This document shows positions 51,748 to 64,000 of a stretch of 64,000 nt of DNA, in pieces. The notes under the pieces were generated by a model that saw only the letters and a program-made list of their open reading frames with translations, had not been told where the DNA came from and did not search any database. The position numbers and the translations under genes were made by a program. Position 1 is the first letter of the stretch; the number at the start of each line of letters is the position of its first letter. This stretch comes from Candidatus Saccharicenans subterraneus (GTDB lineage Bacteria > Acidobacteriota > Aminicenantia > Aminicenantales > Saccharicenantaceae): assembly GCA_003426165.1 (NCBI GenBank), contig QUAH01000006.1, forward strand, positions 134,685-198,684, written 5' to 3'.

Positions 51748-51845
51748 TGAATTGAAGAAGAAATAGCCCGGGCGGAGAAGCTACCAGCCCTGGTTATGAA
51801 TCAGGCTCCAGGATATGAGCAGAGGATGATCAAAGCCAGAGCCAG

Positions 51846-51874
51846 TTTGCTTAACCCTCGAGAATCTTATATAA
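51846..51874 (+). promoter_or_regulatory. Possible promoter TTGCTT, 17-nt spacer, TATAAT upstream of the RsbW-like gene
   Basis: Sequence gtTTGCTTaaccctcgagaatcttaTATAATcgggcc. The -10 box ends only 12 nt before the annotated ATG, so the transcript would be near-leaderless or the start is mis-set. Confidence 0.25.
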
Positions 51875-51886
51875 TCGGGCCAGGGG

Positions 51887-52324
51887 ATGAACTTGGATAA
51901 GGCTGCGGCTGTCATCGAAGTTGCCAGCGAGCTCGGAGAAATTGAAGCCATCAAGAATTTCCTGGACCAAAATCTCCAGGCCCTGCCGGTAACCGAGGAA
52001 GAACATTTCCAGATCGAGCTGGCCCTGATTGAAATCTGCCTCAACATAATCCATTACGCCTACCCTGAAAACAGGGGCACAATCCAGGTAAGATTCTGGA
52101 CCGAGGGACCGCAGGTTTTCCTGGAGATTAGAGATAGCGGCGTACCTTTCGACCCCTCACAGTCGCCTACCCCGGACATAGAAGAGATCATCCGCAAAAG
52201 AAAAAAGGGCGGGCTGGGCATTTACCTCAGCCGGGAGTTGATGGACGGATTTTCCTATCGCCGGGATGGCGGACAGAACATTCTGCTGATGCACAAAAGG
52301 TTGTCCGCGGCCGAGGCTAACTGA
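51887..52324 (+). CDS. Anti-sigma regulatory factor / Ser-protein kinase of the RsbW/SpoIIAB type (HATPase_c fold)
   Basis: 145 aa. N-box-like ELALIEICLNIIHYAY. G-box GGLGIYLSRELMDGF. Confidence 0.65.
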   Translation: MNLDKAAAVIEVASELGEIEAIKNFLDQNLQALPVTEEEHFQIELALIEICLNIIHYAYPENRGTIQVRFWTEGPQVFLEIRDSGVPFDPSQSPTPDIEEIIRKRKKGGLGIYLSRELMDGFSYRRDGGQNILLMHKRLSAAEAN

Positions 52325-53152
52325 TCAGTACAGGACCGCGGCCTCGCCCTTTTCCTGGATGAGCTTATCTATGGCCTGAAGGATGAGCTCCTTCCGGGCC
52401 AGGACGGCGTTGATCTCATCATCAGTCAGGTACTCTCCGACGATACCTTTAATTAACTCAAAATTCAGGGCTTTTATTTTTTCCACGAAGGCCCGGGGCA
52501 GCTCGCTCATCGGCTTCGGACCCTCCCGGTGTTTTTCGGAGTAAATCAGGTTCTGGGTGAATTTTTTCCCGGTGCGGAAAGACCGAGAATGGTCAATCAG
52601 TATCATCCGCCAGTCGGCGGTTATCAAGATGTTGTTCATGTGGCGGTCTTCGTTGCCGATCAGGTTGTCAAAGGCCCTCTGCAGGTAAACGGCCCGGTTC
52701 CAGTTCATCAGCTTGATGGGTGGAGTCTTGATATTTTTCTCGGTCTTTTGTTTTAGGGTCATCTGGTAGTCAACCCAGATCTGGCAGGAACCACGGTTGT
52801 TATGAAACCTTCTTTCCACCGTGGGCGGGACCATGTTCAATTCCAGGTAATTATCCATCAGGTAAGCCGCTATTTCGTATTTCCAGCCTTCCACGAAACC
52901 CTTCAGGCGGCCTTCCGGGTTCTTCCAGAGAGCATTCCTGGTGATCCCGTCCTTTTCCAGGGTCAGTTTCCAGGGGCTGGTGACGGACTCCGGGCCGATT
53001 AGCTGCTCTTCATTGACAATGTTGGCCGTCCGCAAAAATTCTTCCCACCTGGCTCGCTCGGCCACCTCGTCCGGCGTGAACTGAGGAAATAACGGCAGGA
53101 AAAGAAGCAAGGCCACCGAAACCACGAAAAAGCCATAAAACTTTCTTCCCAT
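52325..53152 (-). CDS. Secreted PI3/PI4-kinase-fold protein, type II PI4-kinase-like, paralog 1
   Basis: Signal peptide. ALWKNPEG (Lys region), YLMDNYLELNMVPPTV, GSCQIWVDY, catalytic loop IGNEDRHMNNIL and activation segment ILIDHSRSF align with PI4KII motifs (AVFKPKNEEP, LVDQKLELNIVPRT, GSFQLFVEGY, IRNTDRGNDNWLI, AIDNGLAF). GAGGAGGG RBS. Confidence 0.6.
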   Translation of the reverse strand: MGRKFYGFFVVSVALLLFLPLFPQFTPDEVAERARWEEFLRTANIVNEEQLIGPESVTSPWKLTLEKDGITRNALWKNPEGRLKGFVEGWKYEIAAYLMDNYLELNMVPPTVERRFHNNRGSCQIWVDYQMTLKQKTEKNIKTPPIKLMNWNRAVYLQRAFDNLIGNEDRHMNNILITADWRMILIDHSRSFRTGKKFTQNLIYSEKHREGPKPMSELPRAFVEKIKALNFELIKGIVGEYLTDDEINAVLARKELILQAIDKLIQEKGEAAVLY

Positions 53153-53161
53153 ATTCCCTCC

Positions 53162-53995
53162 TCAATAAAGGACCTTGCCCTCGCCCACGACTTTGATCAT
53201 CTCGTCTATTTCCTTAAGTATTAAATCTTTGCGGGCCAGGACGGCCCTGATTTCTTTATCGGTCAGGTATGGCCCAACGGCCTGTTTGATGCTGTCAAAG
53301 GTCAGGGCCTTGATATTCTCCACCAGTTGCCTAGGCAATTTTCTGAAAGGCAGGGCCCGGCTATCAGCTCTTAACGGGTTTAGACCGAACAGGAGGTGCT
53401 TGGTATATTTTTCTTCTGACCGGAAGCTCCGGGAGTGGTCGATTAGTATGGTCCTCCAGTCCTTGGTATATAAGGTATTTTGCTGGGTGCGGTCCTCGTT
53501 GGCGATCAGGGCATCAAACACCCGGGAAATATATTTTCTCTTCTCCCAGTTATCGGCTTCCGGCCCGCTCGATGGCAGGGGGATATTCTTTTCCATCACC
53601 TGCAGCAGGCTGTATTCTTTCTCCACCCAGAGTTGCAGGGAGCCTCTCTGGCCCCTGAATACCCTCTCCACCGTTGGCGGGATCATGTTCAAGCCCAGCA
53701 GCTTGTCCAGCCGGTAGGCGGCAATTTCATACTGCCAGCCCTCGAGGAAGCCGCCCTGAATTCCGCTGGGGTTCTTCCAGACTCCGCTTCTTTCAACATC
53801 ACCTTTTTTGAGGAAAAGGCGAACCGGCTTGGTTACCCCCTCACCTATCTCTTTATAATCTATTATCTCCGCGGTCAGCAGAAATTCTTCCAGTTCCTCC
53901 CTCTGAGCTATTTCTTCTGGCCTAAACTGTGAAGACAGGGGCAGGTTCAGAACCAAGAGCAATAAACCAACGGCCAAAATCGCACTCTTTCTCAT
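53162..53995 (-). CDS. Secreted PI3/PI4-kinase-fold protein, type II PI4-kinase-like, paralog 2
   Basis: Signal peptide. GVWKNPSG, YRLDKLLGLNMIPPTV, GSLQLWVE, IANEDRTQQNTL, ILIDHSRSF. AAGGAG RBS. Confidence 0.6.
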   Translation of the reverse strand: MRKSAILAVGLLLLVLNLPLSSQFRPEEIAQREELEEFLLTAEIIDYKEIGEGVTKPVRLFLKKGDVERSGVWKNPSGIQGGFLEGWQYEIAAYRLDKLLGLNMIPPTVERVFRGQRGSLQLWVEKEYSLLQVMEKNIPLPSSGPEADNWEKRKYISRVFDALIANEDRTQQNTLYTKDWRTILIDHSRSFRSEEKYTKHLLFGLNPLRADSRALPFRKLPRQLVENIKALTFDSIKQAVGPYLTDKEIRAVLARKDLILKEIDEMIKVVGEGKVLY

Positions 53996-54007
53996 TTCCC
54001 CGACTCC

Positions 54008-54853
54008 TTAATATAAGACTTCCCCCCGGCCATAGGCAGAAATCATCTCCTCGATTTCCTTCAGGATCAGGTCGCGGCGGGCCAGCACAGAATTTATCTC
54101 CCTGGTGGTCAGATAGGAACCCACCGCCTGCCTGATGCTATCAAAGGTCAGGGCCTTCAATCTTTCCACAAATTCGGCTGGCAATCGTTTGAACGGCAGT
54201 GGAATTCCGCCCGGGCGCAGGGGCCGCAGCCCGTACATAAGGTTGTTAGTAAAACGGGCATCGGACCTGAAACTGCGGGAGTGGTCAATAAGTATGGTCC
54301 GCCAGTCTTCAGTGAGCAGGGTATTCTGCAGGCTCCGGTCTTCGTTGGCAATCAGAGAATCAAAGGCCCGGGTCAGATACTGCATCCTTTCCAGGTTAAC
54401 CGCCTCCCACCCCTCCTTTGGCAACTGGATTTTATTATCGACAATTTCCAGAAGGTCGTACTTGTGTTCCACCCAGAGCTGTAAAGAGCCGCGCTGACCC
54501 TGGAACCTCCTTTCCACCGTGGGCGGGATGAGGTTTAAGCCAAGCAACTTATCCAGGCGGTAGGCGGCAATTTCATACTGCCAGCCCTCGTAGTAACCGT
54601 TGATTACTCCGCTCGGGTTCTTCCAGACGGCAGTCAGCTCTGTATCTCCCTTTTTCAAGTAAACCCGAATGGGCAGAGTGATGCCTTTGCCCAGGTCCCG
54701 AAAGCCGGTTATTCTCGCCTTCAGAAGGAATTCTTCCTGTTCGCCCCGCCGGGCTATTTCATCCGTTGTGAACTGGGCGCGGGAACTCGAAAATGACAAT
54801 AACAGAACAAAAGTGGCGGTTAGCAAGTTCCTGGCAGCCGTTTTTAACTGCAA
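54008..54853 (-). CDS. Secreted PI3/PI4-kinase-fold protein, type II PI4-kinase-like, paralog 3 (TTG start)
   Basis: Signal peptide. AVWKNPSG, YRLDKLLGLNLIPPTV, GSLQLWVE, IANEDRSLQNTL, ILIDHSRSF. GGGGA RBS before the TTG. Confidence 0.58.
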   Translation of the reverse strand: MQLKTAARNLLTATFVLLLSFSSSRAQFTTDEIARRGEQEEFLLKARITGFRDLGKGITLPIRVYLKKGDTELTAVWKNPSGVINGYYEGWQYEIAAYRLDKLLGLNLIPPTVERRFQGQRGSLQLWVEHKYDLLEIVDNKIQLPKEGWEAVNLERMQYLTRAFDSLIANEDRSLQNTLLTEDWRTILIDHSRSFRSDARFTNNLMYGLRPLRPGGIPLPFKRLPAEFVERLKALTFDSIRQAVGSYLTTREINSVLARRDLILKEIEEMISAYGRGEVLY

Positions 54854-54973
54854 GGCTTTCCCCTTTGCTAATAGCCTAATATTTTTGCATTATTAAAGTC
54901 AAATTTAATATTTCATCTAAGGCCAGCAAAAATTTTAATTGATATGATAGAGTAGCTTCTGCTATAAACTGGG

Positions 54974-55837
54974 GTGAAAGAGGGCGAACCAATGAAAAAA
55001 CTGTTACTTCTGCTTTCGTTTCTGGTATTTCTTTCTGGCTGTTCTTCTGACCGGTACGCTCCCACCATCCGCTTTCCTTACAAATGGCCGGGCACCCCGG
55101 GTTTTGGCGGCAATATCGATCAGCAAAACATACCCGAGCCTTCGGGTCTGTGCTTCCATCCGCAGCGAAAGACTCTATTTGTGGTCAGCGACGAGGGCTG
55201 GCTTTACGAAATAACAACTGACGGAGCTCCAATTTTCAGCCAGCGGATTCCGGGCGACCTGGAAGCCATTGCCATCAACCCCAGGACGGGCCTGGTTTAC
55301 GTTGTAATTGAAGGAGATGATATCATCCTTGAATATGACCCGGATCGGCACGAGGTTACCCGTAGATTCCCGGTCAACAGAGCCTTCAACGGCGACCTGA
55401 ACTTTCTGCAAAAACAGGTCGAGGAATACGACAACGGCCTGGAGGCGCTGGCTTTTGTCCCGGATGAAAAGCATCCCGAAGGCGGGACCTTTTATGCCGG
55501 GAACCAATGGGACCCGCCCTGTATAGTTGAAATCGAAGTCCCCCTGAAATCAAGCCAGGCCCGGGAGGCCGAAGCCAGAATTATCAGGGTCCTGCCTTTC
55601 AAAATAGACGACCCCGCAGCCATGATTTACGACGAGGAAACCAGGCTTCTGCATATAGGCAGCGATGCCGATAATATCCTGGTTGAGATAACACTCGACG
55701 GGAAACTGGTAAGAGAATACGCCTTTCCAGGCGATAACCAGGAAGGTCTGGCCTGGGATGATAAGGGATACCTTTATATAGCGCAGGACTCAGGGGGCAT
55801 AATAAAAATCCAGGACCTGAGGAAAAAACGATCCTGA
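54974..55837 (+). CDS. YjiK / SdiA-regulated-family beta-propeller lipoprotein
   Basis: Lipobox LSGC. EPSGLCFHP..KTLFVVSDEG, DLEAIAIN, NGLEALAFVP, EGLAWDDKGYLYIA repeats resembling the YjiK family. Confidence 0.5.
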   Translation: MKEGEPMKKLLLLLSFLVFLSGCSSDRYAPTIRFPYKWPGTPGFGGNIDQQNIPEPSGLCFHPQRKTLFVVSDEGWLYEITTDGAPIFSQRIPGDLEAIAINPRTGLVYVVIEGDDIILEYDPDRHEVTRRFPVNRAFNGDLNFLQKQVEEYDNGLEALAFVPDEKHPEGGTFYAGNQWDPPCIVEIEVPLKSSQAREAEARIIRVLPFKIDDPAAMIYDEETRLLHIGSDADNILVEITLDGKLVREYAFPGDNQEGLAWDDKGYLYIAQDSGGIIKIQDLRKKRS

Positions 55838-55870
55838 TATTAAGGTCTTGGAAAGATCCGGAAACCTGGT

Positions 55871-57274
55871 TCAGGACCTTTCCGACTGTGTCCTTGCCCT
55901 CAGTTTTTTATATTCGCGGATTATAAGAAAACACAGGGATATCCAGATCAACACTCCCAGGATATTAACCCGGGCGAACTTTTCCACGCCAAAGGCCAGG
56001 TAAGTCGTGCCCAGAAAAATTCCCAGGGCGGCAATCACATCCCCTCCCCTGACAAAAAAGGTGTCGATGGCCGCCTTGGCTTTATATTTTTCTTCCCTGG
56101 AAGTAATCAGAAAGAGGGCATGCTTGGTGGTGTTCATCAGCGAATAGTCGGTGCCGTTTTCCAGGGCCTTAACCCACTTGATCAAAAGGAGTGAGGCCCC
56201 GACCGCGATAAACCCATAACCACCCAGGGCGATAAAAGGAAAAATAAGAAGAGCCCCGCCCACGCCAATCCACCTGAAAATCCGCGAAACCAGAAAAAGC
56301 TGCAGCACCAGGGCAATCAGGTTGGTCAGCAACTGGTACTCGGCAAAAAATTTCCCTATATATTCTTTCAAATCCAGGCCGCCGGCCAGGCCCGCCGCCA
56401 CGGCCTGGGTGGCCGTTCGGGTTACCACGTTGCTCAGTATGTATTCTCCGGTGGCATTTATGAAATTATAAAGACCGATGACCAGGGCAATCAATAGAAG
56501 GTAGCGGCTCTTGAAAACCAGGCGGAACCCCCCGCCTTTTTTGAGTGGCTTTTCCTGTTCAATTTTCTTTTGCTCCAGCTCGACCGGGGACAGCCCCACC
56601 CTCACGATATGTTGCAACTCTCTCTTGTGAATATGAATGGCCAGCAGGATGCATAAGCCCAGAATGGCGGCCGAAACCAGCATCAGGCTGTAAAGGCCAA
56701 TGGGCCTGATCAACCAGCCTGCTAACCGGCTGCCGAAAACGGCCCCGGAAGTAGCCCCGAAAGCAATCAATGGAAACAGCCTCCGGCCTTCCTCATCAGA
56801 ATACAGGTCGTTGGCAAAACCCCAGAACTGGGCCGGAACCAGCAGGTTATAGATTCCGATCCAGATGAAAAAGATGATGCCCATAGTTCCGAGAGGAATG
56901 CCCACCATACTTAGAATATAGAAAATTATCAGGTTGGAGATAAAGAACAGAGTTACCCAGGTTATCAACAGATGTCTGGGAACCCGGGAAGCCAGGTAGC
57001 TGAAGGCTTTAATCACCAGTATAAGCAAAATGGCCTGGGCTCCGGCCAGGTAACTTTTTATTTCCGCCCCTTTGCCGGCCAGAATCAGCGCGTCCCGGAC
57101 GGGTTTGATTATGTAATAGGCCAGCAGCAACAGGAAGATATTAAAGGTCAGCAGCAAGGCCTTGGAAGCCTCTCCCGGCCTGATATCGGTAAAGAGCCTG
57201 AGCAGCCGGTAACCGGGAGGGCAGGCTCGCTCAGAGTCACTTTTCTGTTTCGGGTCTGGGCCAACCTCTTTCAT
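55871..57274 (-). CDS. TLC-family nucleotide (ATP/ADP) translocase homolog, about 12 TM
   Basis: Polytopic membrane protein. N-terminal ...LLTFNIFLLLLAYYIIKPVRDALIL... Signature GTDYSLMNTTKHALFLITSREEKYKAKAAIDTFFVRGGD resembles the conserved KVKGKAAIDV region of Tlc/NTT transporters. Confidence 0.55.
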   Translation of the reverse strand: MKEVGPDPKQKSDSERACPPGYRLLRLFTDIRPGEASKALLLTFNIFLLLLAYYIIKPVRDALILAGKGAEIKSYLAGAQAILLILVIKAFSYLASRVPRHLLITWVTLFFISNLIIFYILSMVGIPLGTMGIIFFIWIGIYNLLVPAQFWGFANDLYSDEEGRRLFPLIAFGATSGAVFGSRLAGWLIRPIGLYSLMLVSAAILGLCILLAIHIHKRELQHIVRVGLSPVELEQKKIEQEKPLKKGGGFRLVFKSRYLLLIALVIGLYNFINATGEYILSNVVTRTATQAVAAGLAGGLDLKEYIGKFFAEYQLLTNLIALVLQLFLVSRIFRWIGVGGALLIFPFIALGGYGFIAVGASLLLIKWVKALENGTDYSLMNTTKHALFLITSREEKYKAKAAIDTFFVRGGDVIAALGIFLGTTYLAFGVEKFARVNILGVLIWISLCFLIIREYKKLRARTQSERS

Positions 57275-57285
57275 TTCTCCCCCTG

Positions 57286-58101
57286 TTAATTTTTCTTCCT
57301 GGTAAACAGGATGGCTTCCTCGCCCTGTTCTTCTATCAATTTCTTTATTGCGGCTATTATAAGATCCTTCCTTTCGAGCAACGCTTCTATTTCCTGTTCG
57401 CTAAGGTAAGGCTTGAGTTTGTTGGTCAGCAGCCCGGGGTCCAGCCGGCTCAGGCTGTTAAACAATTCCCTGGAGCACCTGCGGATTGGACAGTCCGTAA
57501 GCAGCTCCGGAACCGGGGCGAAACTTTCAGAAAAATCAATTCGCCAGACCTGCCAGGTGTTCATGCTTATCAGGATGTCGTCCTGGTCCAGGCACTGGTC
57601 ATAAACCAGATTCTCGAAAACCACCACTTCGGCCAGGGCCTGCTGGAAAGCTTCTTCATCCGGCGGATTCAGTCCTTTCCTCTGCCGCTGGGCTTCGGTT
57701 ATTACCCCGGTCAGCATGACCTGCAGGGAACCGCTGCGGCCATCCAGCTTTCTGACCACCACAGGCGGCATGAGCTCCAGGTCGAGCAGCTTATTCAGCT
57801 CATAAGCAGCCAGCTCATAGAAATAGCTGTCCGGGATCATGGCCGGTCGGGGCCGGTGGACGTACTTAAAAATGGCCCGCCCTTTCATCCGTCCATCATC
57901 CAGGCTGACAACCCAGGGAGCAGTCCGGCCGCCGGCCTGTCCCTTGCTGACCCTGACCACCCTGGCCTTACTCAGGAAATTCTCCAACTGTTCCCGCTCC
58001 TTCTGATCACCAAATAAGTAATCTGAGGCAACCATAAAAAACCCCCAGACCATGGCCATCATTACCAGCCCTGTCTTAAATAAATTTTTATTATTTTCCA
58101 T
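57286..58101 (-). CDS. Secreted/anchored PI3/PI4-kinase-fold protein, type II PI4-kinase-like, divergent paralog 4
   Basis: Shares N-terminal REQLENFL, AIFKYVHRP (Lys), YELNKLLDLELMPPVV, GSLQVMLTG and ...RIDFSESF with paralogs 1-3. The catalytic loop is degenerate (CLDQDDILISMN). Start placed at the internal ATG at 58101 with a GGGGGA RBS. The track start at 58134 would overlap the upstream gene by 44 nt. Confidence 0.5.
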   Translation of the reverse strand: MENNKNLFKTGLVMMAMVWGFFMVASDYLFGDQKEREQLENFLSKARVVRVSKGQAGGRTAPWVVSLDDGRMKGRAIFKYVHRPRPAMIPDSYFYELAAYELNKLLDLELMPPVVVRKLDGRSGSLQVMLTGVITEAQRQRKGLNPPDEEAFQQALAEVVVFENLVYDQCLDQDDILISMNTWQVWRIDFSESFAPVPELLTDCPIRRCSRELFNSLSRLDPGLLTNKLKPYLSEQEIEALLERKDLIIAAIKKLIEEQGEEAILFTRKKN

Positions 58102-59143
58102 GGTTAATCCCCCACAGGGAGAACTGGCCGTCATTTATGATCAGAGCCCTCATATGACCGCCGTAGGCCCGGGAGATTCCTGTATCAACGATCCAGATCT
58201 TCCCCCCGAATCTTCTCATATCATTGATGGTCAGGACCAGGCGAGGAGTATGGGCCACTATGATCTGCCTGGCCTCCAGGTTATTCAGGATACGGTCAAC
58301 CTGTTCCTCTGAAACGCTGCCATTGGCCAGGGCCAGCTCCCGGTACCAGAGAGGCCCGTTGCTCCTGTAGACAATTTCCAGTTTCATATCAGTCGGAGGC
58401 GACAGGTTCAGAATCGCTTTCTGAAAGACCGAGAGTTCATACCGGAGCCTGTTGTTTATGTCTTCAAGTTTCCACTTTGAGAATTCTTCGCTTATACCAC
58501 CGTGAACGAAGACGGTGTCATTAATCTTTATGACAGCATTCTTACGGGCAATCCATTTTCCGTATTTCTGGTTAAAATTGATCAGGTATTTTTGCCTGGC
58601 TTCCTGGTCAAAATCTATTACTTCCTGCCAGAGGCGTCTGATATCCCTCCCCCTCCTGGCCTTCTTTTCCAGCTCTTTCTGCTTCCTGGCCAGGTAATCC
58701 TCTGGAAGAAACGAGATAAACTGCTCAACGGTAACATAATCCTCATAATCGAAGGCGATCCCGGTGATGTTCATTTCTTCGTGATTGCCGATCAACATCT
58801 GCACCTGACCGCCGGCAGCTTCGGCCTCCGTTTCCAGCTTGCGAATTAAGTCAAAGATCTTGCGGGCATCGGGACCGCGGTCCAGGACATCTCCGGTCTG
58901 AACCAGAAAAGCCTGTCCACCCTTCCAGCTCAAGCTGGAATCAACCAGTCCTACCCCCTTCAGTATCTCGACAAAATGCTCGTAATCGCCGTGCAGGTCC
59001 CCGACCACCACGATCTTTTCCACCCCGCTCCAGCGGCAGGGAATTTGCTCGGCGGGAAGAACAGGCCGGGTCAGCCAGACCAGCCAAAGCAGTAAATAGA
59101 GAACCTTCTGGCCAGCCCTTTTTCTCTGGAAGATTTTATTCAT
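58091..59143 (-). CDS. Secreted PPP-family metallophosphatase (calcineurin-like / ApaH-like Ser/Thr phosphatase fold)
   Basis: Signal peptide. GDLHGD, GDVLDRG, GNHE signature triplet. Confidence 0.7.
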   Translation of the reverse strand: MNKIFQRKRAGQKVLYLLLWLVWLTRPVLPAEQIPCRWSGVEKIVVVGDLHGDYEHFVEILKGVGLVDSSLSWKGGQAFLVQTGDVLDRGPDARKIFDLIRKLETEAEAAGGQVQMLIGNHEEMNITGIAFDYEDYVTVEQFISFLPEDYLARKQKELEKKARRGRDIRRLWQEVIDFDQEARQKYLINFNQKYGKWIARKNAVIKINDTVFVHGGISEEFSKWKLEDINNRLRYELSVFQKAILNLSPPTDMKLEIVYRSNGPLWYRELALANGSVSEEQVDRILNNLEARQIIVAHTPRLVLTINDMRRFGGKIWIVDTGISRAYGGHMRALIINDGQFSLWGINHGK

Positions 59144-59313
59144 GAAATCTCACCCGGGGTAACCATCATTGCCGCTTTCCCCTGTTCTTATCCTACTTTC
59201 TTCCTATACCTAAACGTCCTTAAAGTCAAATAAAATTCGTTGCTGCCGGGCAAAAAAATTATTTATTTTGCATAAAAAACATATTAGAATAAATTGTGGA
59301 AAGGGGAATTATC

Positions 59314-59607
59314 ATGATTGCCCGAGTAACTATTTTTCACGTCAAGCCAGAGAAGGTAGAAGAGGCCATCAAGCTTTACGAAACCAGCGTCATCCCGGAC
59401 GCCAAGAAGCAAAACGGCTTCGCCGGAGGATATCTCCTCACCGACCGGGCCAGTGGCCGGGGAATGTCCCTGACCTTCTGGCAAACCCAGGAAGACGTCA
59501 CGGCCAGCGAAGAGAACCTTCACTACCAGCAGCAGCTGCTCAAATTTCTGGAAATGTTTGCCTCTCCGCCCATCAAGGAACAATACGCCATCAGCCTTGA
59601 GTTTTAA
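59314..59607 (+). CDS. Small ABM/Dabb-like (dimeric alpha+beta barrel) protein
   Basis: 97 aa from the ATG at 59314 (AAGGGGAA RBS 5 nt upstream). MIARVTIFHVKPEKVEEA... pattern typical of antibiotic-biosynthesis-monooxygenase-like stress proteins. Confidence 0.4.
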   Translation: MIARVTIFHVKPEKVEEAIKLYETSVIPDAKKQNGFAGGYLLTDRASGRGMSLTFWQTQEDVTASEENLHYQQQLLKFLEMFASPPIKEQYAISLEF

Positions 59608-59685
59608 GGACGCGCATTCAGGGATTTTAGGTGATTGTGACAAGAATTAAAAGTGGTGGAAAACGCCATTGACAGGGAGTGAAAG

Positions 59686-60033
59686 GTGAAAATATCAACC
59701 AGAGAAATTAACGACATTCTGATCGTCGACATCGAGGGAGAAATCAGGAGGTCAGACATCACCGACATGACCCTCCATCAATGGATCAAGCAGCAACTGG
59801 AAAGGGGCAAAAGGAAAATCTTGCTCAACTTCGAAAAGGTAGAATTCATCGACAGCTTCGGCGTGGGCGAAATCCTGGCCAGTTACATCTCGGCCAACAA
59901 CCTCGGCGGTAAGCTGAAGCTGGTCAGGATTTCCAAGAAGCTCTACCTGATCTTCCAGGTAACCATGCTGACCAGGGTGCTGGAAATATATGACGACGAA
60001 CAGGTGGCCCTGGAGAGCTTTTTCAAAGAGTGA
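59686..60033 (+). CDS. STAS-domain anti-sigma-factor antagonist (SpoIIAA/RsbV-like)
   Basis: 115 aa. ILIVDIEGEI..., conserved IDSFGVGEIL (phosphorylatable Ser region). Confidence 0.7.
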   Translation: MKISTREINDILIVDIEGEIRRSDITDMTLHQWIKQQLERGKRKILLNFEKVEFIDSFGVGEILASYISANNLGGKLKLVRISKKLYLIFQVTMLTRVLEIYDDEQVALESFFKE

Positions 60034-60061
60034 GTCTCCCTCCTGTCGCGGGGAATAAGAA

Positions 60062-62539
60062 TTGACAGATGAACCCAGCCGGCTCCACGGGTTCCTTTCC
60101 CGCCTGGTGGAGATCAAGCCGGGAGAGGAAAGAATTACCCTTTTACTTTTCTTCTATTTTTTCCTGATCACTGCCGCCTACTCGATCATAAAATCCCTGA
60201 GGGTGGCCAGCTATCTGGACTCCCTGGGGGCTGATAAACTCCCCCTGGCCTATCTCCTGACCGCCGTGTCGATCGGCCTGGTGGTAGCCATTCATTCCAA
60301 ACTCCAGGCCAGCTTATCCAGGTTAAACCTTATAATTTTCAGCCTGGCCTTTTTCATCCTGACGGCGGTGTTATTCTGGCTGCTGTTCAGCCTCGGCTGG
60401 GCCTGGCTATCCCTGGCTTATTACATCTGGGCCAATATATTTCTGGCCGTGGTCATCACCCAGTTCTGGATAGTGGTCAACGATATTTTCAACCCCAGGG
60501 AAACCAAGCGCCTGGTGGGCCTTTTCGGAAGCGGCGGTATCCTGGGGGGCATCCTGGGAGGCGAAGCTACCGGACTCATGGCCAGGGCCAGTGTTGATAC
60601 CAGACTTCTTTTTCTGGCCTGCGGTTTTCTGCTTCTAACCATTGTTGTGGTCTACCTGATAGCTGACTGGCAAAAGAGATCGGGCCGGGGACCTTCTCAA
60701 GACTCCACAGAATCCACCCAACAGAACGGGAAGACCGAGCGGGTGGGATTCAGGGAGTGCCTGCGGACTGTTATCGGACAGCGTTACTTCCGGCTGCTGG
60801 CCGGCGGCATAGCCCTGAGCCTGATAGTCTCCACCTTTATCGACTGGCAGTTCAGCAAGGTGGTCGAAGGAACAGCCAGCCTTGGAGACAGACTGACCTC
60901 GTTCTTCGGGCATTTCAATGCCGGCCTGCTGGTGGTAGCCTTTTTCATTCAACTTTTCCTTACCAGCCGGTTTGTCCAGAAATTCGGGATCAGGTTTTCT
61001 TTCCTTATCTATCCTTCAGTCCTGATCATAGTTCTGACCGGGTTAACCGCGCTGCCAGCCAGCCTGCTGATGGCCCTGACTCTGAAGGCCTCTGATAAGA
61101 GTCTTTCCTATACCCTGAATCAATCCGTCAGGGAACTGCTCTACATCCCGGTTTCCCCCGAGGTCAAATACAAGGCCAAGATCTTCATTGACATGTTCCT
61201 CAACCGCTTTGCCAAGGGGCTGGGAGGGGTCCTGCTGATGGCCCTTCTCTACTTCAGCCTCAATCTTCGTTTTATCAGCCTGGTGACCATCCTGTTGATC
61301 CTGGGCTGGATGGCGGTCAATCTCCAGGTCACCAGGGAATACGCGGCCGTGGTCAGGAATAAATTAAAAAAGAAGTGGGACCGGGCCGAAAAGGCAGTGG
61401 CCGAGCAACTGGACCTGGACTACCTGAAACTGGCCTTTGACACCCTGGACACTCGCCGGCGAAGCCGGGAACTTCTGGCCATGGACATATTTGACCTCAT
61501 GAAGCAAGATAAACTCCGCCCTGAATTAAAAGAGCTGCTTACCTCAAACCTTTCTGAACCCGGGGTTTCCTCGCTCGGTACCCTGTTTGAAGAAGAAGCC
61601 CTGGCCCTGTCTGAATGGCCCGCGGGTGAGAACGAAGACCTCCTTAAAAAGGAAGTGGATGAAATTCTGTCCCTGGAAGCCTACCAGGAACTTATAAAGG
61701 AATATATCCGAAGAGTCGTGGCGGATAAGAAGCCCGGCACAGAAATTATGAGGATGGAAGCAGCCAAGCTCTTCAGCCTGATGCCAGCGAACTTCGTGCC
61801 GGCCGAGGAACTGGCCGAGTTACTCGGGGATGAATCGCCAGAGGTCAGCCGCCTGGCCATGGACAGCGCTGCCCGGTCCGGGCAGAAGGAACACCTAGAA
61901 ACCATCATCAGAAAACTGAAGGATCCGGTGACCAGAGAGGACGCCGTCTCGGCCCTTCTAACCTTCGGCTCCAAAATTACCGGCACTCTGTCGGATTACC
62001 TCGAAGTCGAGGAACTGGACCTTGAGGTCAAGAAGGCCATAATAAACGTTCTCTCGCGGATGGCCACCCAGGAAGCCGCCGACCTGCTGGCCCTCGAGCT
62101 TCAGAAAAATCAGCCGGAGCTTGATGGGGAACTGATTGAGGCCCTGGACAGGATTCATCATCTTAAACCCGAAATATCAATCCCGGCAGAAATCTCAAGG
62201 AAGAAATTAAAAGAGGAAATAGAGAGGCATTGTCAGCTATTGCTGGCAACGCTGGATAGCCAAGGGCCACTTGGGGAGGAAGCAGAAAAAGAGCTGGTCC
62301 GGTCCCAGTCGGATATTTTCAAATTACTCGGGTTTCTCTATCCCGGGGATGACATCAGCCGGGCCTGGCAGAATTTCCGGACCGGAACCAAAGACTCCAG
62401 AGCCTACGCCCTCGAACTCCTCGATAATATTCTGATTAAATCCGACCGGGAGATGGTTCTGCCGCTGCTGGAAGATCTGCCACCCTCGGACCGGTTAAAA
62501 AGAGTTCGAACCCTGCTTGATGAATTGGGAAAAACATAG
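60062..62539 (+). CDS. TLC-family nucleotide translocase homolog fused to C-terminal HEAT/PBS-lyase-like repeat domain (825 aa, TTG start)
   Basis: N-terminal 430 aa polytopic, with SDKSLSYTLNQSVRELLYIPVSPEVKYKAKIFIDMF (TLC signature region) paralogous to the 55871-57274 protein. The C-terminal 390 aa consist of repeated LLxDxxPxVRxxAxxAL-type alpha-helical repeats. Confidence 0.55.
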   Translation: MTDEPSRLHGFLSRLVEIKPGEERITLLLFFYFFLITAAYSIIKSLRVASYLDSLGADKLPLAYLLTAVSIGLVVAIHSKLQASLSRLNLIIFSLAFFILTAVLFWLLFSLGWAWLSLAYYIWANIFLAVVITQFWIVVNDIFNPRETKRLVGLFGSGGILGGILGGEATGLMARASVDTRLLFLACGFLLLTIVVVYLIADWQKRSGRGPSQDSTESTQQNGKTERVGFRECLRTVIGQRYFRLLAGGIALSLIVSTFIDWQFSKVVEGTASLGDRLTSFFGHFNAGLLVVAFFIQLFLTSRFVQKFGIRFSFLIYPSVLIIVLTGLTALPASLLMALTLKASDKSLSYTLNQSVRELLYIPVSPEVKYKAKIFIDMFLNRFAKGLGGVLLMALLYFSLNLRFISLVTILLILGWMAVNLQVTREYAAVVRNKLKKKWDRAEKAVAEQLDLDYLKLAFDTLDTRRRSRELLAMDIFDLMKQDKLRPELKELLTSNLSEPGVSSLGTLFEEEALALSEWPAGENEDLLKKEVDEILSLEAYQELIKEYIRRVVADKKPGTEIMRMEAAKLFSLMPANFVPAEELAELLGDESPEVSRLAMDSAARSGQKEHLETIIRKLKDPVTREDAVSALLTFGSKITGTLSDYLEVEELDLEVKKAIINVLSRMATQEAADLLALELQKNQPELDGELIEALDRIHHLKPEISIPAEISRKKLKEEIERHCQLLLATLDSQGPLGEEAEKELVRSQSDIFKLLGFLYPGDDISRAWQNFRTGTKDSRAYALELLDNILIKSDREMVLPLLEDLPPSDRLKRVRTLLDELGKT

Positions 62540-62548
62540 GCGTTGACA

Positions 62549-64000
62549 ATGAGCCAGAACAGAACATATCGCCTGCTATCTCGGCTGGTGGATATCAGAC
62601 CGGAAGAAGTCACCCCTTCTTTGCTGATGTTCTTTTATTTTTTTCTTATTCAGGTTTCTGCTTACATCATTGAGCCCGTAAAGATTTCACTTTACCTGAG
62701 ATGGCTGACCGCCGACCGCCTCCCCTATGCCTACCTGCTGTCGGCCCTGTTGATCGGGCTGGCCGTAGCCTTCAATTCCGAGTTACTCCAGAGAATCAGG
62801 AGATCATATTACCTGGCCTTTAGTCTGCTGTTTTTCATTTCGACCCTGATTCTCTTCTGGTTTCTCTTTCGGATTCACTGGCCCTGGCTGTCGCTGATCT
62901 ACTGGTTCTGGTCCGACCTGTTCATGGTTACCACCACCACCCAGTTCTGGATCATGGTCAATGACCTTTACCATCCGCACCAGGCCAAGCGACTCATTGG
63001 CTTCCTGGTCAGTGGTGGCCTGCTGGGAGGCGTGAGCGGAGCCCTGCTGGCCTCGCGCCTGGCCAGGCACCTCGGCACGGAAAATCTTCTTCTGATCTGC
63101 CCGGTTCTTCTGCTGTTCTGCCTGGTCATCATCTATTTTTATGCCAGGCTGCCAGGCAAGGAAGAGAAACAGTCCACCGCCTCTGGCGCCAGGAGCTCTC
63201 CCCTGGCCACCTGGCGGGAAATCCGGTCCAGCCGTTACCTGTCCCTTCTGGCGGCCATCGTAGCCCTGGGCATGATCATAACCACCCTGGTGGACTTTCA
63301 GTTTGTTTCGGTAGTTGGTTCAAGATTTACCGAACAGGACGCCAGGACCTCTTTCCTGGGCAGTTTTCTGACAGTCCTTCTGGTTTTTTCCTATCTTCTT
63401 CACGTGACCATGACGACCAGGATTTTAAGGCAGTCCGGCCTCCGGCTGGCCCTGCTCATCGCTCCCGCTTTCCTGCTACTAAGCTCGCTGGCCATCTTCT
63501 TTGTTCCGGCCACCTATTTGATTTACTGGGCGGTCCTTATCAAAGGAACCGACAAGAGTCTAAGCTATTCACTCAACCAATCGGTCCGGGAATTACTTTA
63601 CGTCCCGGTCTCGCCGGAAATTAAGTACCGGGCCAAAGTTTTCATCGACATGTTTGTTTCCAAGTTTGCCAAGGGCTTTAGCTCCATCATTCTTCTGGTC
63701 GGTTTCACTCTTCTGCATTTCAACCTCAAGCAGATAAGCCTGGTTACCGTTGCCTTCATCATTCTCTGGTTTATGTTCAACCTGGAAATTGCCCGTGAAT
63801 ACGTTAATACCGTCAAGAAAAACTTAAAAATAAAATGGCAGGATGCCCACCTGGTTATCAATGAGAAGATCGACCTAGACCTGACCAAGCTGGTCTTTGA
63901 TACCCTGGAGAGCAAGAAGCGAAGCTCCGTTCTCTATGCCATGAACCTGATGAACCTGCTGAAGACCGAGAAATTGAGCCCTGAACTGAAAGAGATAATA
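62549..64000 (+). CDS. Second TLC-family translocase homolog (HEAT-fusion paralog), 3' end truncated by the window edge
   Basis: MSQNRTYRLLSRLVDIRPEEV... parallels the N-terminus of the preceding gene. TDKSLSYSLNQSVRELLYVPVSPEIKYRAKVFIDMF signature. No stop before the window end. Confidence 0.5.
   Translation, partial: MSQNRTYRLLSRLVDIRPEEVTPSLLMFFYFFLIQVSAYIIEPVKISLYLRWLTADRLPYAYLLSALLIGLAVAFNSELLQRIRRSYYLAFSLLFFISTLILFWFLFRIHWPWLSLIYWFWSDLFMVTTTTQFWIMVNDLYHPHQAKRLIGFLVSGGLLGGVSGALLASRLARHLGTENLLLICPVLLLFCLVIIYFYARLPGKEEKQSTASGARSSPLATWREIRSSRYLSLLAAIVALGMIITTLVDFQFVSVVGSRFTEQDARTSFLGSFLTVLLVFSYLLHVTMTTRILRQSGLRLALLIAPAFLLLSSLAIFFVPATYLIYWAVLIKGTDKSLSYSLNQSVRELLYVPVSPEIKYRAKVFIDMFVSKFAKGFSSIILLVGFTLLHFNLKQISLVTVAFIILWFMFNLEIAREYVNTVKKNLKIKWQDAHLVINEKIDLDLTKLVFDTLESKKRSSVLYAMNLMNLLKTEKLSPELKEII

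Follow-up and report, generated by a model that had tools for sequence, protein, structure and literature searches.

Described systems related to the cluster

Regulated ATP-dependent phosphorylation is textbook knowledge where the cytoplasm of bacteria and the secretory pathway of eukaryotes are concerned, but not in the case of the bacterial periplasm. Here, we describe a gene cluster in a stretch of 64,000 nucleotides (nt) of Candidatus Saccharicenans subterraneus (Acidobacteriota, Aminicenantia; assembly GCA_003426165.1, contig QUAH01000006.1, positions 134,685 to 198,684 of the forward strand), which we call the window and to which all coordinates refer. The cluster contains a gene for a PPP-family phosphatase, four genes for Fam20-like proteins (K1 to K4) and genes for transporters of the NTT (TLC) family. 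On balance, we favour a reading in which the phosphatase and K4 form an eraser, K1 to K3 are the writers and the NTT proteins supply the ATP, all in the envelope of this Aminicenantes bacterium.

The closest described relative of the phosphatase is the Shewanella CAPTPase (PPI; 1V73, 2Z72 and 2ZBM), the prototype of the Shewanella-like phosphatases (Shelphs), which resembles it in the motifs GDxHG, GDxxDRG, GNHE, HGG, GHT, (I/L/V)D(S/T)G and GPxWYR. The two proteins share about 25-30% identity over the catalytic domain, and both bear an insert between GNHE and HGG (PMC535813); the Shewanella enzyme is specific for tyrosine (PMC535813). Unlike the CAPTPase, the window phosphatase has an insert (amino acids (aa) ~128-200) that is, by alignment, about 36 aa longer and has invariant residues of its own (Q141, F142, S144-L146, W172 and Y186). 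It is also tied to a Fam20-like domain, by coupling or fusion, within an NTT/kinase cluster, an arrangement of which the available part of PMC535813 contains no report. Arabidopsis SLP1 and SLP2, Plasmodium SHLP and Legionella WipA (the last placed here by description only) are members or relatives of the same "bacterial-like" PPP branch, have proteins as substrates and act in non-cytosolic or foreign compartments. For instance, SLP1 is targeted to the chloroplast (PMC535813), and WipA is described, in the accessible part of the source, as a PPP-fold tyrosine phosphatase and secreted effector (PMC5454105). However, these proteins rely on organelle transit peptides or type IV secretion, not Sec, and are not known to have a fused or coupled kinase-like partner.

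The K proteins resemble animal Fam20C/Fam20A and FAM20B, to which they are homologous (3e-15 to 1e-10; TM score 0.68), and, like them, have signal peptides (predicted in the K proteins) and a non-cytosolic action, which is likewise a prediction for the K proteins. As in the Fam20C/Fam20A pair, active kinases would be combined with a catalytically impaired paralog. Fam20 systems depend on ATP import into a compartment other than the cytosol, which here would be the periplasm, with an ATP carrier of the NTT type rather than of the SLC35 type. In addition, the bacterial proteins are shorter (about 270 aa, compared with 400-580 in animals), and K4 partners with a phosphatase, whereas Fam20A partners with an active kinase. 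K4 has lost the aspartate of the catalytic loop, while the defect of Fam20A lies elsewhere.

A kinase gene adjacent to, and co-transcribed with, the gene of an opposing phosphatase, giving a reversible switch, is generally known from PrkC/PrpC and PknB/PstP. Those systems, however, have cytoplasmic catalytic domains, PP2C (PPM) phosphatases and Hanks-type kinases (ePK), in contrast to the predicted extracytoplasmic location, PPP/Shelph phosphatase and Fam20-like proteins found here. Pnkp joins a lambda-phosphatase-type metallophosphoesterase and a kinase in one polypeptide, according to the accessible part of PMC2190708. The window phosphatase matches its model TIGR04075 only faintly (14 bits, cut-off 750) and over the metal motifs, and Pnkp differs in being cytoplasmic and in having a P-loop kinase that acts on RNA ends, where the proteins described here have a Fam20-fold kinase domain and a predicted signal peptide.

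Lastly, NTT-HEAT and NTT-HEAT-cNBD proteins are widespread in free-living bacteria and have no known function, and an operon with a cNMP-binding gene has been described for them (Major, Embley and Williams 2017, PMC5381601, as far as accessible). The TLC-HEAT proteins of the window have the same architecture and, in three related loci of other Acidobacteriota classes (L088, L089 and L091), a cNMP-binding gene matches that operon, with one gene added: a Metallophos/Fam20-like fusion. Neither a phosphatase nor a kinase linked to NTT-HEAT is mentioned in the accessible part of that article. In the open-access literature, we found no account of a periplasmic kinase with ATP export, of bacterial Fam20 homologs, of NTT-HEAT together with a phosphatase or of NTTs in Aminicenantes. 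The phosphatase by itself is a further member of a known clade, while no published account of its pairing or fusion with Fam20, of the Fam20-like family or of the link to NTT-HEAT was found in open-access text.

A Shewanella-like phosphatase with an intact active site

The gene and the metal-binding motifs of its product are the following:

58091 to 59143, minus strand: Shelph-type PPP phosphatase of 350 aa (ATG start; Pfam Metallophos, PDB sequence matches, AlphaFold2 (AF2) model and Foldseek).
58988 to 59002, minus strand: metal-binding motif GDLHG (aa 48-52), read from the sequence; D49 and H51 invariant.
58874 to 58894, minus strand: motif GDVLDRG (aa 84-90), read from the sequence; D85 and R89 invariant.
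58778 to 58789, minus strand: motif GNHE (aa 119-122), read from the sequence; N120 and H121 invariant.

The preliminary description of this DNA, made from the sequence alone, had recognised the PPP triad in this open reading frame (ORF), and the comparison with homologs bears it out. Further motifs are VHGG (aa 213-216), AHT (aa 297-299) and VDTG (aa 319-322), the last of bacterial type, and the protein has the metal-ligand histidines H214 and H298. In an alignment of 32 sequences of 50-81% identity, no variation occurs at the ligands of metal and phosphate (D49, H51, D85, R89, N120, H121, H214 and H298), nor at D320 and G322 of VDTG. Pfam Metallophos, a check that had been suggested, matches above its cut-off (E 2.4e-13; 51 bits against 21.5), and 1973 homologs are found at E<=1e-5. 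As judged from sequence conservation, this is a real gene, apparently under selection for catalysis. Pfam FBPase_2 also matches aa 279-328, but its 21.9 bits do not reach the cut-off of 27, and this was judged to be a sub-threshold match to the common metallophosphoesterase fold.

Both sequence and predicted structure place the protein next to the CAPTPase. When the single sequence was compared with the PDB, the only significant matches were 1V73, 2Z72 and 2ZBM, over the whole domain (E ~6e-33). With the family profile, the Shewanella enzyme (2Z72/1V73) reaches 8.7e-48, compared with 2.5e-4 for RLPH2, 1.3e-3 for lambda phosphatase and 3e-3 for ApaH. A structure prediction had been proposed as a means of settling the subfamily; the resulting AF2 model (pLDDT 89.9, pTM 0.86) finds the same three CAPTPase structures as its best Foldseek matches (E 2e-19, TM 0.63-0.65), followed by eukaryotic PP5, calcineurin, PP2A and PP1, the next class being at E ~1e-9. 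GNHE (aa 122) and VHGG (aa 213-216) are about 90 residues apart, and the segment between them forms a helical subdomain (129-199) in the model. According to Andreeva and Kutuzov (PMC535813), Shelphs are recognised by the three PPP motifs, (I/L/V)D(S/T)G and extra residues between GNHE and HGG, the second of these standing in bacterial-type PPPs where the eukaryotic ones have SAPNY (PMC535813). Because the window phosphatase shows all three features, it is assigned, by sequence profile, modelled fold and motifs, to the Shelph clade.

These comparisons also bear on the suggestion, made in the preliminary description, that the enzyme could be an ApaH-like nucleotide phosphohydrolase. Under that explanation, it would act in the cytoplasm as an Ap4A hydrolase or stress phosphatase of the ApaH/PrpA kind, with an incidentally hydrophobic N-terminus, and the overlap with K4 described below would be mere gene packing. 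NCBIfam models do give weak matches over the shared N-terminal metal motifs, but the scores are 27.2 bits for ApaH (NF001204, cut-off 176, aa 45-122 only) and 25.6, 20.4 and 22.8 bits for PrpA, PrpB and PrpE (cut-offs 326, 332 and 340), respectively. In addition to the difference of profile E-values given above, ApaH is absent from the top 50 Foldseek matches of the model, and both the signal-peptide features and the pairing or fusion with K4 are conserved. Consequently, the ApaH identity was discarded, and the explanation as a whole is considered extremely improbable. Instead of a clustering with ApaH or PrpA and a lack of kinase-like genes nearby, which the preliminary description had named as evidence against its proposal, the nearest relative is the CAPTPase and a kinase-like gene accompanies the phosphatase in 85 of 86 loci.

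Predicted export of the phosphatase

59054 to 59143, minus strand: predicted Sec signal peptide (aa 1-30; n-h-c features) with putative cleavage LPA/EQ; an uncleaved N-in anchor is possible.

The N-terminus reads MNKIFQRKRAGQK-VLYLLLWLVWL-TRPVLPA/EQ (the slash marks the putative cleavage site); it contains five K/R residues, a hydrophobic core free of charges and L-P-A as the (-3,-1) site. Export was judged by crude hydrophobic-core and (-3,-1) tests made for this analysis. Within these limits, the signal peptide proposed in the preliminary description is supported, as the n-h-c features recur in the family: among the 120 best homologs, the N-terminal sequence diverges, but the K/R-rich start, the hydrophobic core and the small-x-small site are nearly always kept. 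A (-3,-1) site follows an uncharged hydrophobic stretch in 102 of the 120, mostly 16 residues before GDxHG, and a lipobox-like motif takes its place in 4 of the 120.

The hydrophobic-core test separates the proteins of the cluster from their cytoplasmic neighbours. It is positive for the phosphatase in 78/86 cases, for K4 in 69/72, for K1 in 67/69, for K2 in 53/58, for K3 in 5/5 and for a lipoprotein encoded in the cluster in 32/36, compared with 0/62 for STAS, 1/55 for HATPase_c_2 and 2/24 for ABM proteins. Export of the phosphatase, or at least an extracytoplasmic position of its catalytic domain, is thus well supported by these features, although not proven. The signal could be cleaved or kept as an anchor, and an uncleaved anchor would also place the enzyme outside the cytoplasm.

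Pairing and fusion with K4

The gene that follows the phosphatase on the same strand encodes K4:

57286 to 58101, minus strand: K4, predicted-exported Fam20-like domain without the catalytic Asp, 271 aa (AF2, Foldseek, alignment and pairing).
58091 to 58101, minus strand: 11-nt overlap ATGGAAAATAA of the phosphatase stop and the K4 start, read from the sequence.

An overlap of about 11 nt had been noted in the preliminary description, and it is exactly 11 nt: the phosphatase ends with TAA at 58093-58091, and K4 starts with ATG at 58101-58099, behind a Shine-Dalgarno-like GGGGGA. A longer K4 ORF, starting from ATG 58134, exists in the window, but it is not conserved in two loci that are 94-95% identical (L007 and L008), where the maximal-ORF overlap is also 11 nt.

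The conservation of this arrangement was examined in 86 loci, 6 obtained from exact-protein look-ups and 80 from species representatives in GTDB, taken as the best among 213 genomes with a match. The pairing with a kinase-like gene turned out to be near-universal in relatives, since a K4-type gene comes next on the same strand in 85 of the 86 loci (L072 is the sole locus without it). Measured on maximal ORFs, the genes overlap in 66 loci, and in at least 19 of these the overlap is just 4-17 nt; they are separated by a short gap in 5, and in 14, from different species, phosphatase and K4 are joined in one ORF of ~600-650 aa after trimming of maximal-ORF upstream extensions. In the fused ORFs, the K4 match begins at K4 residue ~35-38, and a linker rich in Pro, Ala, Ser, Gly and Glu replaces the hydrophobic N-terminus of K4, so that the signal peptide of the phosphatase is the only one. 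Following the "Rosetta stone" argument, the existence of 14 fusions in which the signal segment of K4 has been replaced is evidence that phosphatase and K4 act together in one compartment.

In one clade of Aminicenantes fusions, the first PPP motif reads ADLHG instead of GDLHG, with the Asp and His ligands kept (fused ORFs L076 and L084; proteins P0236 and P0360-P0373). All credible taxonomic labels of the loci are Aminicenantes or other Acidobacteriota; the exceptions are generic or probably erroneous ("Clostridiales", "uncultured Eubacteriales" and "Candidatus Desulfaltia sp."). A spread over several phyla was therefore not demonstrated, as every source-named relative belongs to the Acidobacteriota (Aminicenantes, Thermoanaerobaculia, Terriglobia or Vicinamibacterales).

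K4 and its paralogs are Fam20 homologs

Three paralogs of K4 lie downstream:

54008 to 54853, minus strand: K3, predicted-exported Fam20-like kinase with intact NEDRxxxN...IDHSR (sequence and profile comparison).
53162 to 53995, minus strand: K2, predicted-exported Fam20-like kinase with intact catalytic loop (sequence and profile comparison).
52325 to 53152, minus strand: K1, predicted-exported Fam20-like kinase with intact loop NEDRHMNN...IDHSR (Pfam PI3_PI4_kinase and profile).

The family escapes the Pfam cut-offs. K1-K3 give marginal matches to PI3_PI4_kinase, Fam20C and HipA_2, K4 gives none, the Fam20C model scores 17-18 bits (below its cut-off of 26.8) and K1 just reaches that of PI3_PI4_kinase (27.2 bits against 27.1). 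The AF2 model of K4 (pLDDT 91, pTM 0.85) has Fam20C/Fam20A (5YH2, 5YH0 and 5WRR) as its best Foldseek matches (E 7e-10 to 3e-8, TM 0.61-0.68), followed by PI3K/PI4K, Helicobacter pylori CtkA and Rio2. A profile of K1-K3-type sequences retrieves, among PDB sequences, FAM20A at 3e-15, Fam20C at 3e-11 and 9e-11, the FAM20B xylosylkinase at 1e-10, C. elegans Fam20 at 4e-10 and type II PI4-kinases at 2e-3. Its alignments to FAM20A and zebrafish Fam20C span the strand of the ATP-binding Lys, the EIAAxxLDxxLxxxxVPPTVxR helix, the FDxLIGNxDR catalytic loop, the metal-binding xDxxRxF segment and the C-terminal helices. By sequence and modelled fold, K1 to K4 are thus assigned as true Fam20 homologs.

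Within this family, K4 departs from its paralogs at the catalytic loop. K1-K3 have both features of active kinases, the catalytic-loop Asp and the DFG-equivalent metal-binding Asp (N-E-D-R-x-x-x-N ... I-D-H-S-R), whereas K4 and its orthologs read FENLxYxxCxDxxDxLI ... RVDFSE, the loop region of K4 being VYDQCLDQDD where K1-K3 show NEDRxxxN. In K1, the invariant aspartates of the catalytic loop and of IDH are D169 and D187. According to a profile-profile alignment (probability 100%), the counterpart of the catalytic Asp in K4 is a variable residue, usually Cys (C169 here), that of the Arg is Leu or another residue, and that of the Asn is a conserved Asp (D175). Since the Asp and Arg of the catalytic loop are lost, K4 is most likely a pseudokinase. 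The kinase fold claimed for the partner in the preliminary description is therefore supported, and can be specified as that of Fam20; by contrast, an opposing kinase is less likely than a pseudokinase subunit of the phosphatase. K1-K3, because they retain the catalytic motif, become the candidate writers.

Nevertheless, K79 (the Lys), D175 and the DFG-like D189 are retained in K4, 90-100% conserved, and it has been reported that some pseudokinases, such as SidJ and SelO, have unexpected activities (PMC7948968). K4 might thus be an atypical enzyme, that is, a kinase with another catalytic base or an AMPylase or glutamylase comparable to SelO or SidJ, in which case the pair would be a bifunctional writer and eraser. 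The complete catalytic loop of the ancestral-looking fusions described below also agrees with this explanation. However, the position of the catalytic Asp is wholly unconserved among orthologs (C, R, K, S, P or H), which speaks against a replacement catalytic residue there, and the canonical loop of K1-K3 in the same locus fits a division of labour. We regard an atypical K4 as rather unlikely.

The profile matches raise another question, as that to FAM20B is as strong as one to Fam20C (1e-10). Fam20C phosphorylates proteins and FAM20B a sugar, and the class of substrate cannot be deduced from the fold. Hence, the Fam20/PI4K-like enzymes could phosphorylate a sugar (as FAM20B does with xylose) or a lipid head group of lipopolysaccharide (LPS), exopolysaccharide (EPS) or a membrane lipid at the outer face, with the Shelph-K4 pair trimming the phosphate; the pathway would then serve remodelling and not protein signalling. 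The match to type II PI4-kinases, the presence of PI3K and PI4K in the Foldseek list of K4 and the Pfam match of K1 point in the same direction, and several kinase paralogs per locus would suit several acceptor sites. On the other hand, the fold does not reveal the substrate class, the nearest characterized phosphatases act on proteins, and the conserved core of the cluster showed neither glycosyltransferase nor LPS/EPS genes. As far as the substrate is concerned, remodelling of a glycan or lipid is a serious alternative, although we rate it as unlikely.

K4 orthologs have a C-x6-C pair at aa ~202-209 (consensus PxCxIxRCS; ~57477-57500 of the window, minus strand), of which C209 is kept in at least 90% of orthologs; K1-K3 lack the pair at the aligned positions. 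A disulfide between these residues would fit an oxidising, extracytoplasmic location.

Phosphatase-kinase fusions in other Acidobacteriota

A comparison of the K profile with 1.84 billion cluster representatives gave 4813 matches at E<=1e-3, of which 815 reached E<=1e-30. Among the 150 best matches, about a quarter are 590-900 aa long and, of ten long matches examined, nine consist of an N-terminal Metallophos and a C-terminal kinase-like domain. The remaining one (P0209, 671 aa) has three stretches matching the kinase-like profile and no Metallophos, and appears to be a tandem of Fam20-like domains. Many long fusions carry the complete FDNLIxNxDRNxGNxLI ... IDHTR motifs, and 41 of the 42 long fusions of phosphatase and kinase begin with a signal-peptide-like N-terminus. 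The phosphatase domain of these fusions matches that of the window from end to end, insert included (28% identity, E 2e-32). The source-named members come from Thermoanaerobaculia, Terriglobia, Vicinamibacterales and "Acidobacteriota", and members are annotated merely as "metallophosphoesterase" or "hypothetical protein". The likely history is that Acidobacteriota had an exported phosphatase-kinase with both functions, whose kinase domain degenerated in Aminicenantes and was often split off, while the free paralogs K1-K3 kept the loop.

In many loop-intact members (within P0243-P0354), Arg, His or Gln aligns with the ATP-binding Lys of Fam20 (e.g., AIFRDV, AIFHDV and AHFQAI), and K1-K4 of the window keep the Lys.

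Putative nucleotide exchangers beside the phosphatase and kinase-like genes

The window contains three NTT-family genes in a span of less than 8 kb from one another's neighbourhood, together with genes of signalling proteins and a lipoprotein:

55871 to 57274, minus strand: short transporter of 467 aa resembling TLC/NTT-family nucleotide exchangers (Pfam TLC E 1.8e-16), 11 nt after the K4 stop.
60062 to 62539, plus strand: NTT(TLC)-HEAT fusion transporter of 825 aa (Pfam TLC 5.7e-19 and HEAT_2).
62549 to 64000, plus strand: second NTT(TLC)-HEAT paralog, running off the window end (uninterrupted translation of a TLC-like membrane protein).
59686 to 60033, plus strand: STAS-domain protein directly upstream of TLC-HEAT (Pfam STAS E 8.7e-13).
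51887 to 52324, plus strand: cytoplasmic HATPase_c_2 protein of the anti-sigma-factor/partner-switching kinase type (Pfam family recorded for orthologs).
54974 to 55837, plus strand: SdiA-regulated/phytase-like beta-propeller lipoprotein, convergent (Pfam PF06977 and PF13449, lipobox model LPAM_1).

Pfam TLC scores 60.4 and 68.7 bits on the neighbouring transporters (cut-off 21). The second TLC-HEAT copy starts 10 nt after the first ends, and such a tandem pair is also present in relatives, where the STAS gene adjoins TLC-HEAT as well.

In the 62 loci with enough flank, the short TLC gene directly follows K4 in 44, K1/K2-type genes are present in 60, HATPase_c_2 closes the cluster in 51 and the lipoprotein gene, which lies between the short TLC gene and K3, is found in 28. 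It is possible that this lipoprotein is a substrate or accessory factor of the module. In the 34 loci with at least 9 kb on both sides, TLC-HEAT lies within 10 kb in 31 and STAS in 28. The association extends beyond the Aminicenantes: canonical fusions of other Acidobacteriota classes have an NTT-HEAT gene one to two genes away in 5 of 6 contexts, with a cNMP-binding gene in between in 3 of those 5 and two junctions that overlap by 4 nt. In these three loci, NTT-HEAT, the cNMP-binding gene and the Metallophos/Fam20-like fusion follow one another with short gaps (L088 4805-10151, L089 4665-10187 and L091 3628-9151). Such consistent adjacency to the Shelph/Fam20-like module suggests a role for NTT-HEAT, and it is plausible that the adjacent exchangers, as conserved neighbours, are the ATP source of the module, a link not made in the preliminary description. 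A minimal PPP-K4-K1 arrangement, without TLC, STAS or HATPase_c_2 within the fetched flanks, is seen in L004, L025, L028-L031, L035, L039 and L068.

A set of partner-switching-type proteins (STAS, HATPase_c_2 and a SpoIIE-type PP2C) brackets the cluster in many relatives, where the SpoIIE-type PP2C, with FHA and GAF domains, often flanks TLC-HEAT (L001 337-2025, L006 500-2176 and L089 2979-4637). This set may regulate the HEAT domain of the transporter.

The transporters and the lipoprotein could also be explained by nutrient scavenging, with the phosphatase freeing phosphate from extracellular organophosphates or nucleotides, NTT-type carriers importing nucleotides as in intracellular parasites and the K proteins being binding or unrelated proteins. 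In fact, exported metallophosphoesterases often serve phosphorus acquisition, Aminicenantes inhabit organic-rich anoxic sediments, and the cluster encodes the phytase-like/SdiA-regulated lipoprotein. According to the accessible part of PMC5381601, moreover, every characterized NTT imports nucleotides. By contrast, the phosphatase belongs to a PPP clade of the protein-phosphatase type, nearest to a tyrosine phosphatase and to the folds of eukaryotic PP5, calcineurin and PP2A; its neighbours are signalling proteins (STAS, HATPase_c_2, SpoIIE-FHA-GAF and cNMP-binding), and neither Pho-regulon nor Pst genes occur in the loci examined. Scavenging would also leave unexplained the near-universal coupling or fusion to a Fam20-type domain and the full catalytic loop of that domain in other classes. 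Consequently, we consider it improbable.

A proposed envelope phosphorylation module

Returning to the eraser-writer reading, the cluster could function as follows. An active Shelph phosphatase with a dinuclear metal centre would be made together with K4 and probably exported by Sec to the periplasm or cell surface, where the two would most likely form a stable complex outside the cytoplasmic membrane. K4 would be a docking or regulatory subunit of the pseudokinase type, pointing the phosphatase at its substrate, and the complex would strip the phosphate that K1-K3 add to a substrate in the envelope, which may be a protein, a glycan or a lipid. NTT exchangers would deliver ATP outward and retrieve ADP (perhaps also inorganic phosphate), with their cytoplasmic HEAT domains gated by STAS/HATPase_c_2/SpoIIE or, in other classes, by cNMP-binding proteins. 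With an inside-negative membrane potential, an exchange of ATP4- for ADP3- would run outward, as it does in mitochondria. Such a module would carry out the reversible extracytoplasmic phosphorylation that the preliminary description had proposed for a secreted kinase and phosphatase, as we infer from the combination of genes. That description had the phosphatase type, the signal-peptide features and the pairing right, but its partner kinase is probably a pseudokinase, its kinases are Fam20 homologs and it had overlooked the transporters.

Several observations weigh against this reading. The TLC proteins are far from the characterized ATP/ADP translocases (TIGR00769 gives 55-61 bits, the cut-off being 387); L092, a locus with a canonical fusion, has no TLC gene nearby, and about ten Aminicenantes loci carry PPP-K4-K1 with no TLC within 10 kb. 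The periplasm is generally held to be free of ATP, which could leak through porins. Many loop-intact members of the wider family have R, H or Q at the position of the Fam20 ATP-binding Lys, so that not all need be kinases, and K4, with K79, D175 and D189, may still bind a nucleotide or catalyse another reaction. Lastly, localisation is predicted from crude sequence tests and the N-terminus of the phosphatase could be an uncleaved anchor, and the analysis identified no candidate substrate.

The coupled phosphatase/Fam20-like module beside putative ATP/ADP-exchanger genes suggests an undescribed envelope phosphorylation system of the Acidobacteriota, which has a reasonable chance of being categorically new. 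In its most complete form, a dedicated, ATP-fuelled system would comprise Sec-exported Fam20-type kinases, reversal by the Shelph phosphatase, docked to or fused with a kinase or pseudokinase domain, and NTTs that work in reverse, comparable to the mitochondrial ADP/ATP carrier, exporting ATP and taking back ADP under STAS/partner-switching or cNMP control through their HEAT domains; this can be proposed only tentatively, as we think it somewhat doubtful. If true, the Golgi Fam20C/Fam20A system would have a counterpart in prokaryotes, and the NTT-HEAT proteins of free-living bacteria would gain their first proposed function. The cluster would make three matters testable: kinase and phosphatase chemistry outside the bacterial cytoplasm, the origin of the Fam20 secretory kinases and the purpose of NTT-HEAT(-cNBD), which PMC5381601, in its accessible part, leaves open. 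Additionally, the 4813 cluster representatives allow a family-level annotation for thousands of "hypothetical protein" entries. Even if the scavenging or the glycan/lipid explanation were correct, the phosphatase-kinase fusion would be a domain architecture not described in open-access text.

Other features of the cluster

No usable operon boundaries were obtained from a promoter and terminator scan of 51800-60200, as the counts were not above the shuffled expectation, and an Rfam scan of the cluster (E<=0.1) gave no riboswitch or other RNA family. One further gene lies next to the phosphatase:

59296 to 59607, plus strand: ABM-domain protein, divergent from the phosphatase (library match); an inconsistent neighbour, present in 7 of 34 loci.

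At the other end of the cluster, the HATPase_c_2 gene directly abuts the stop codon of K1 (52324/52325), the two genes being convergent.

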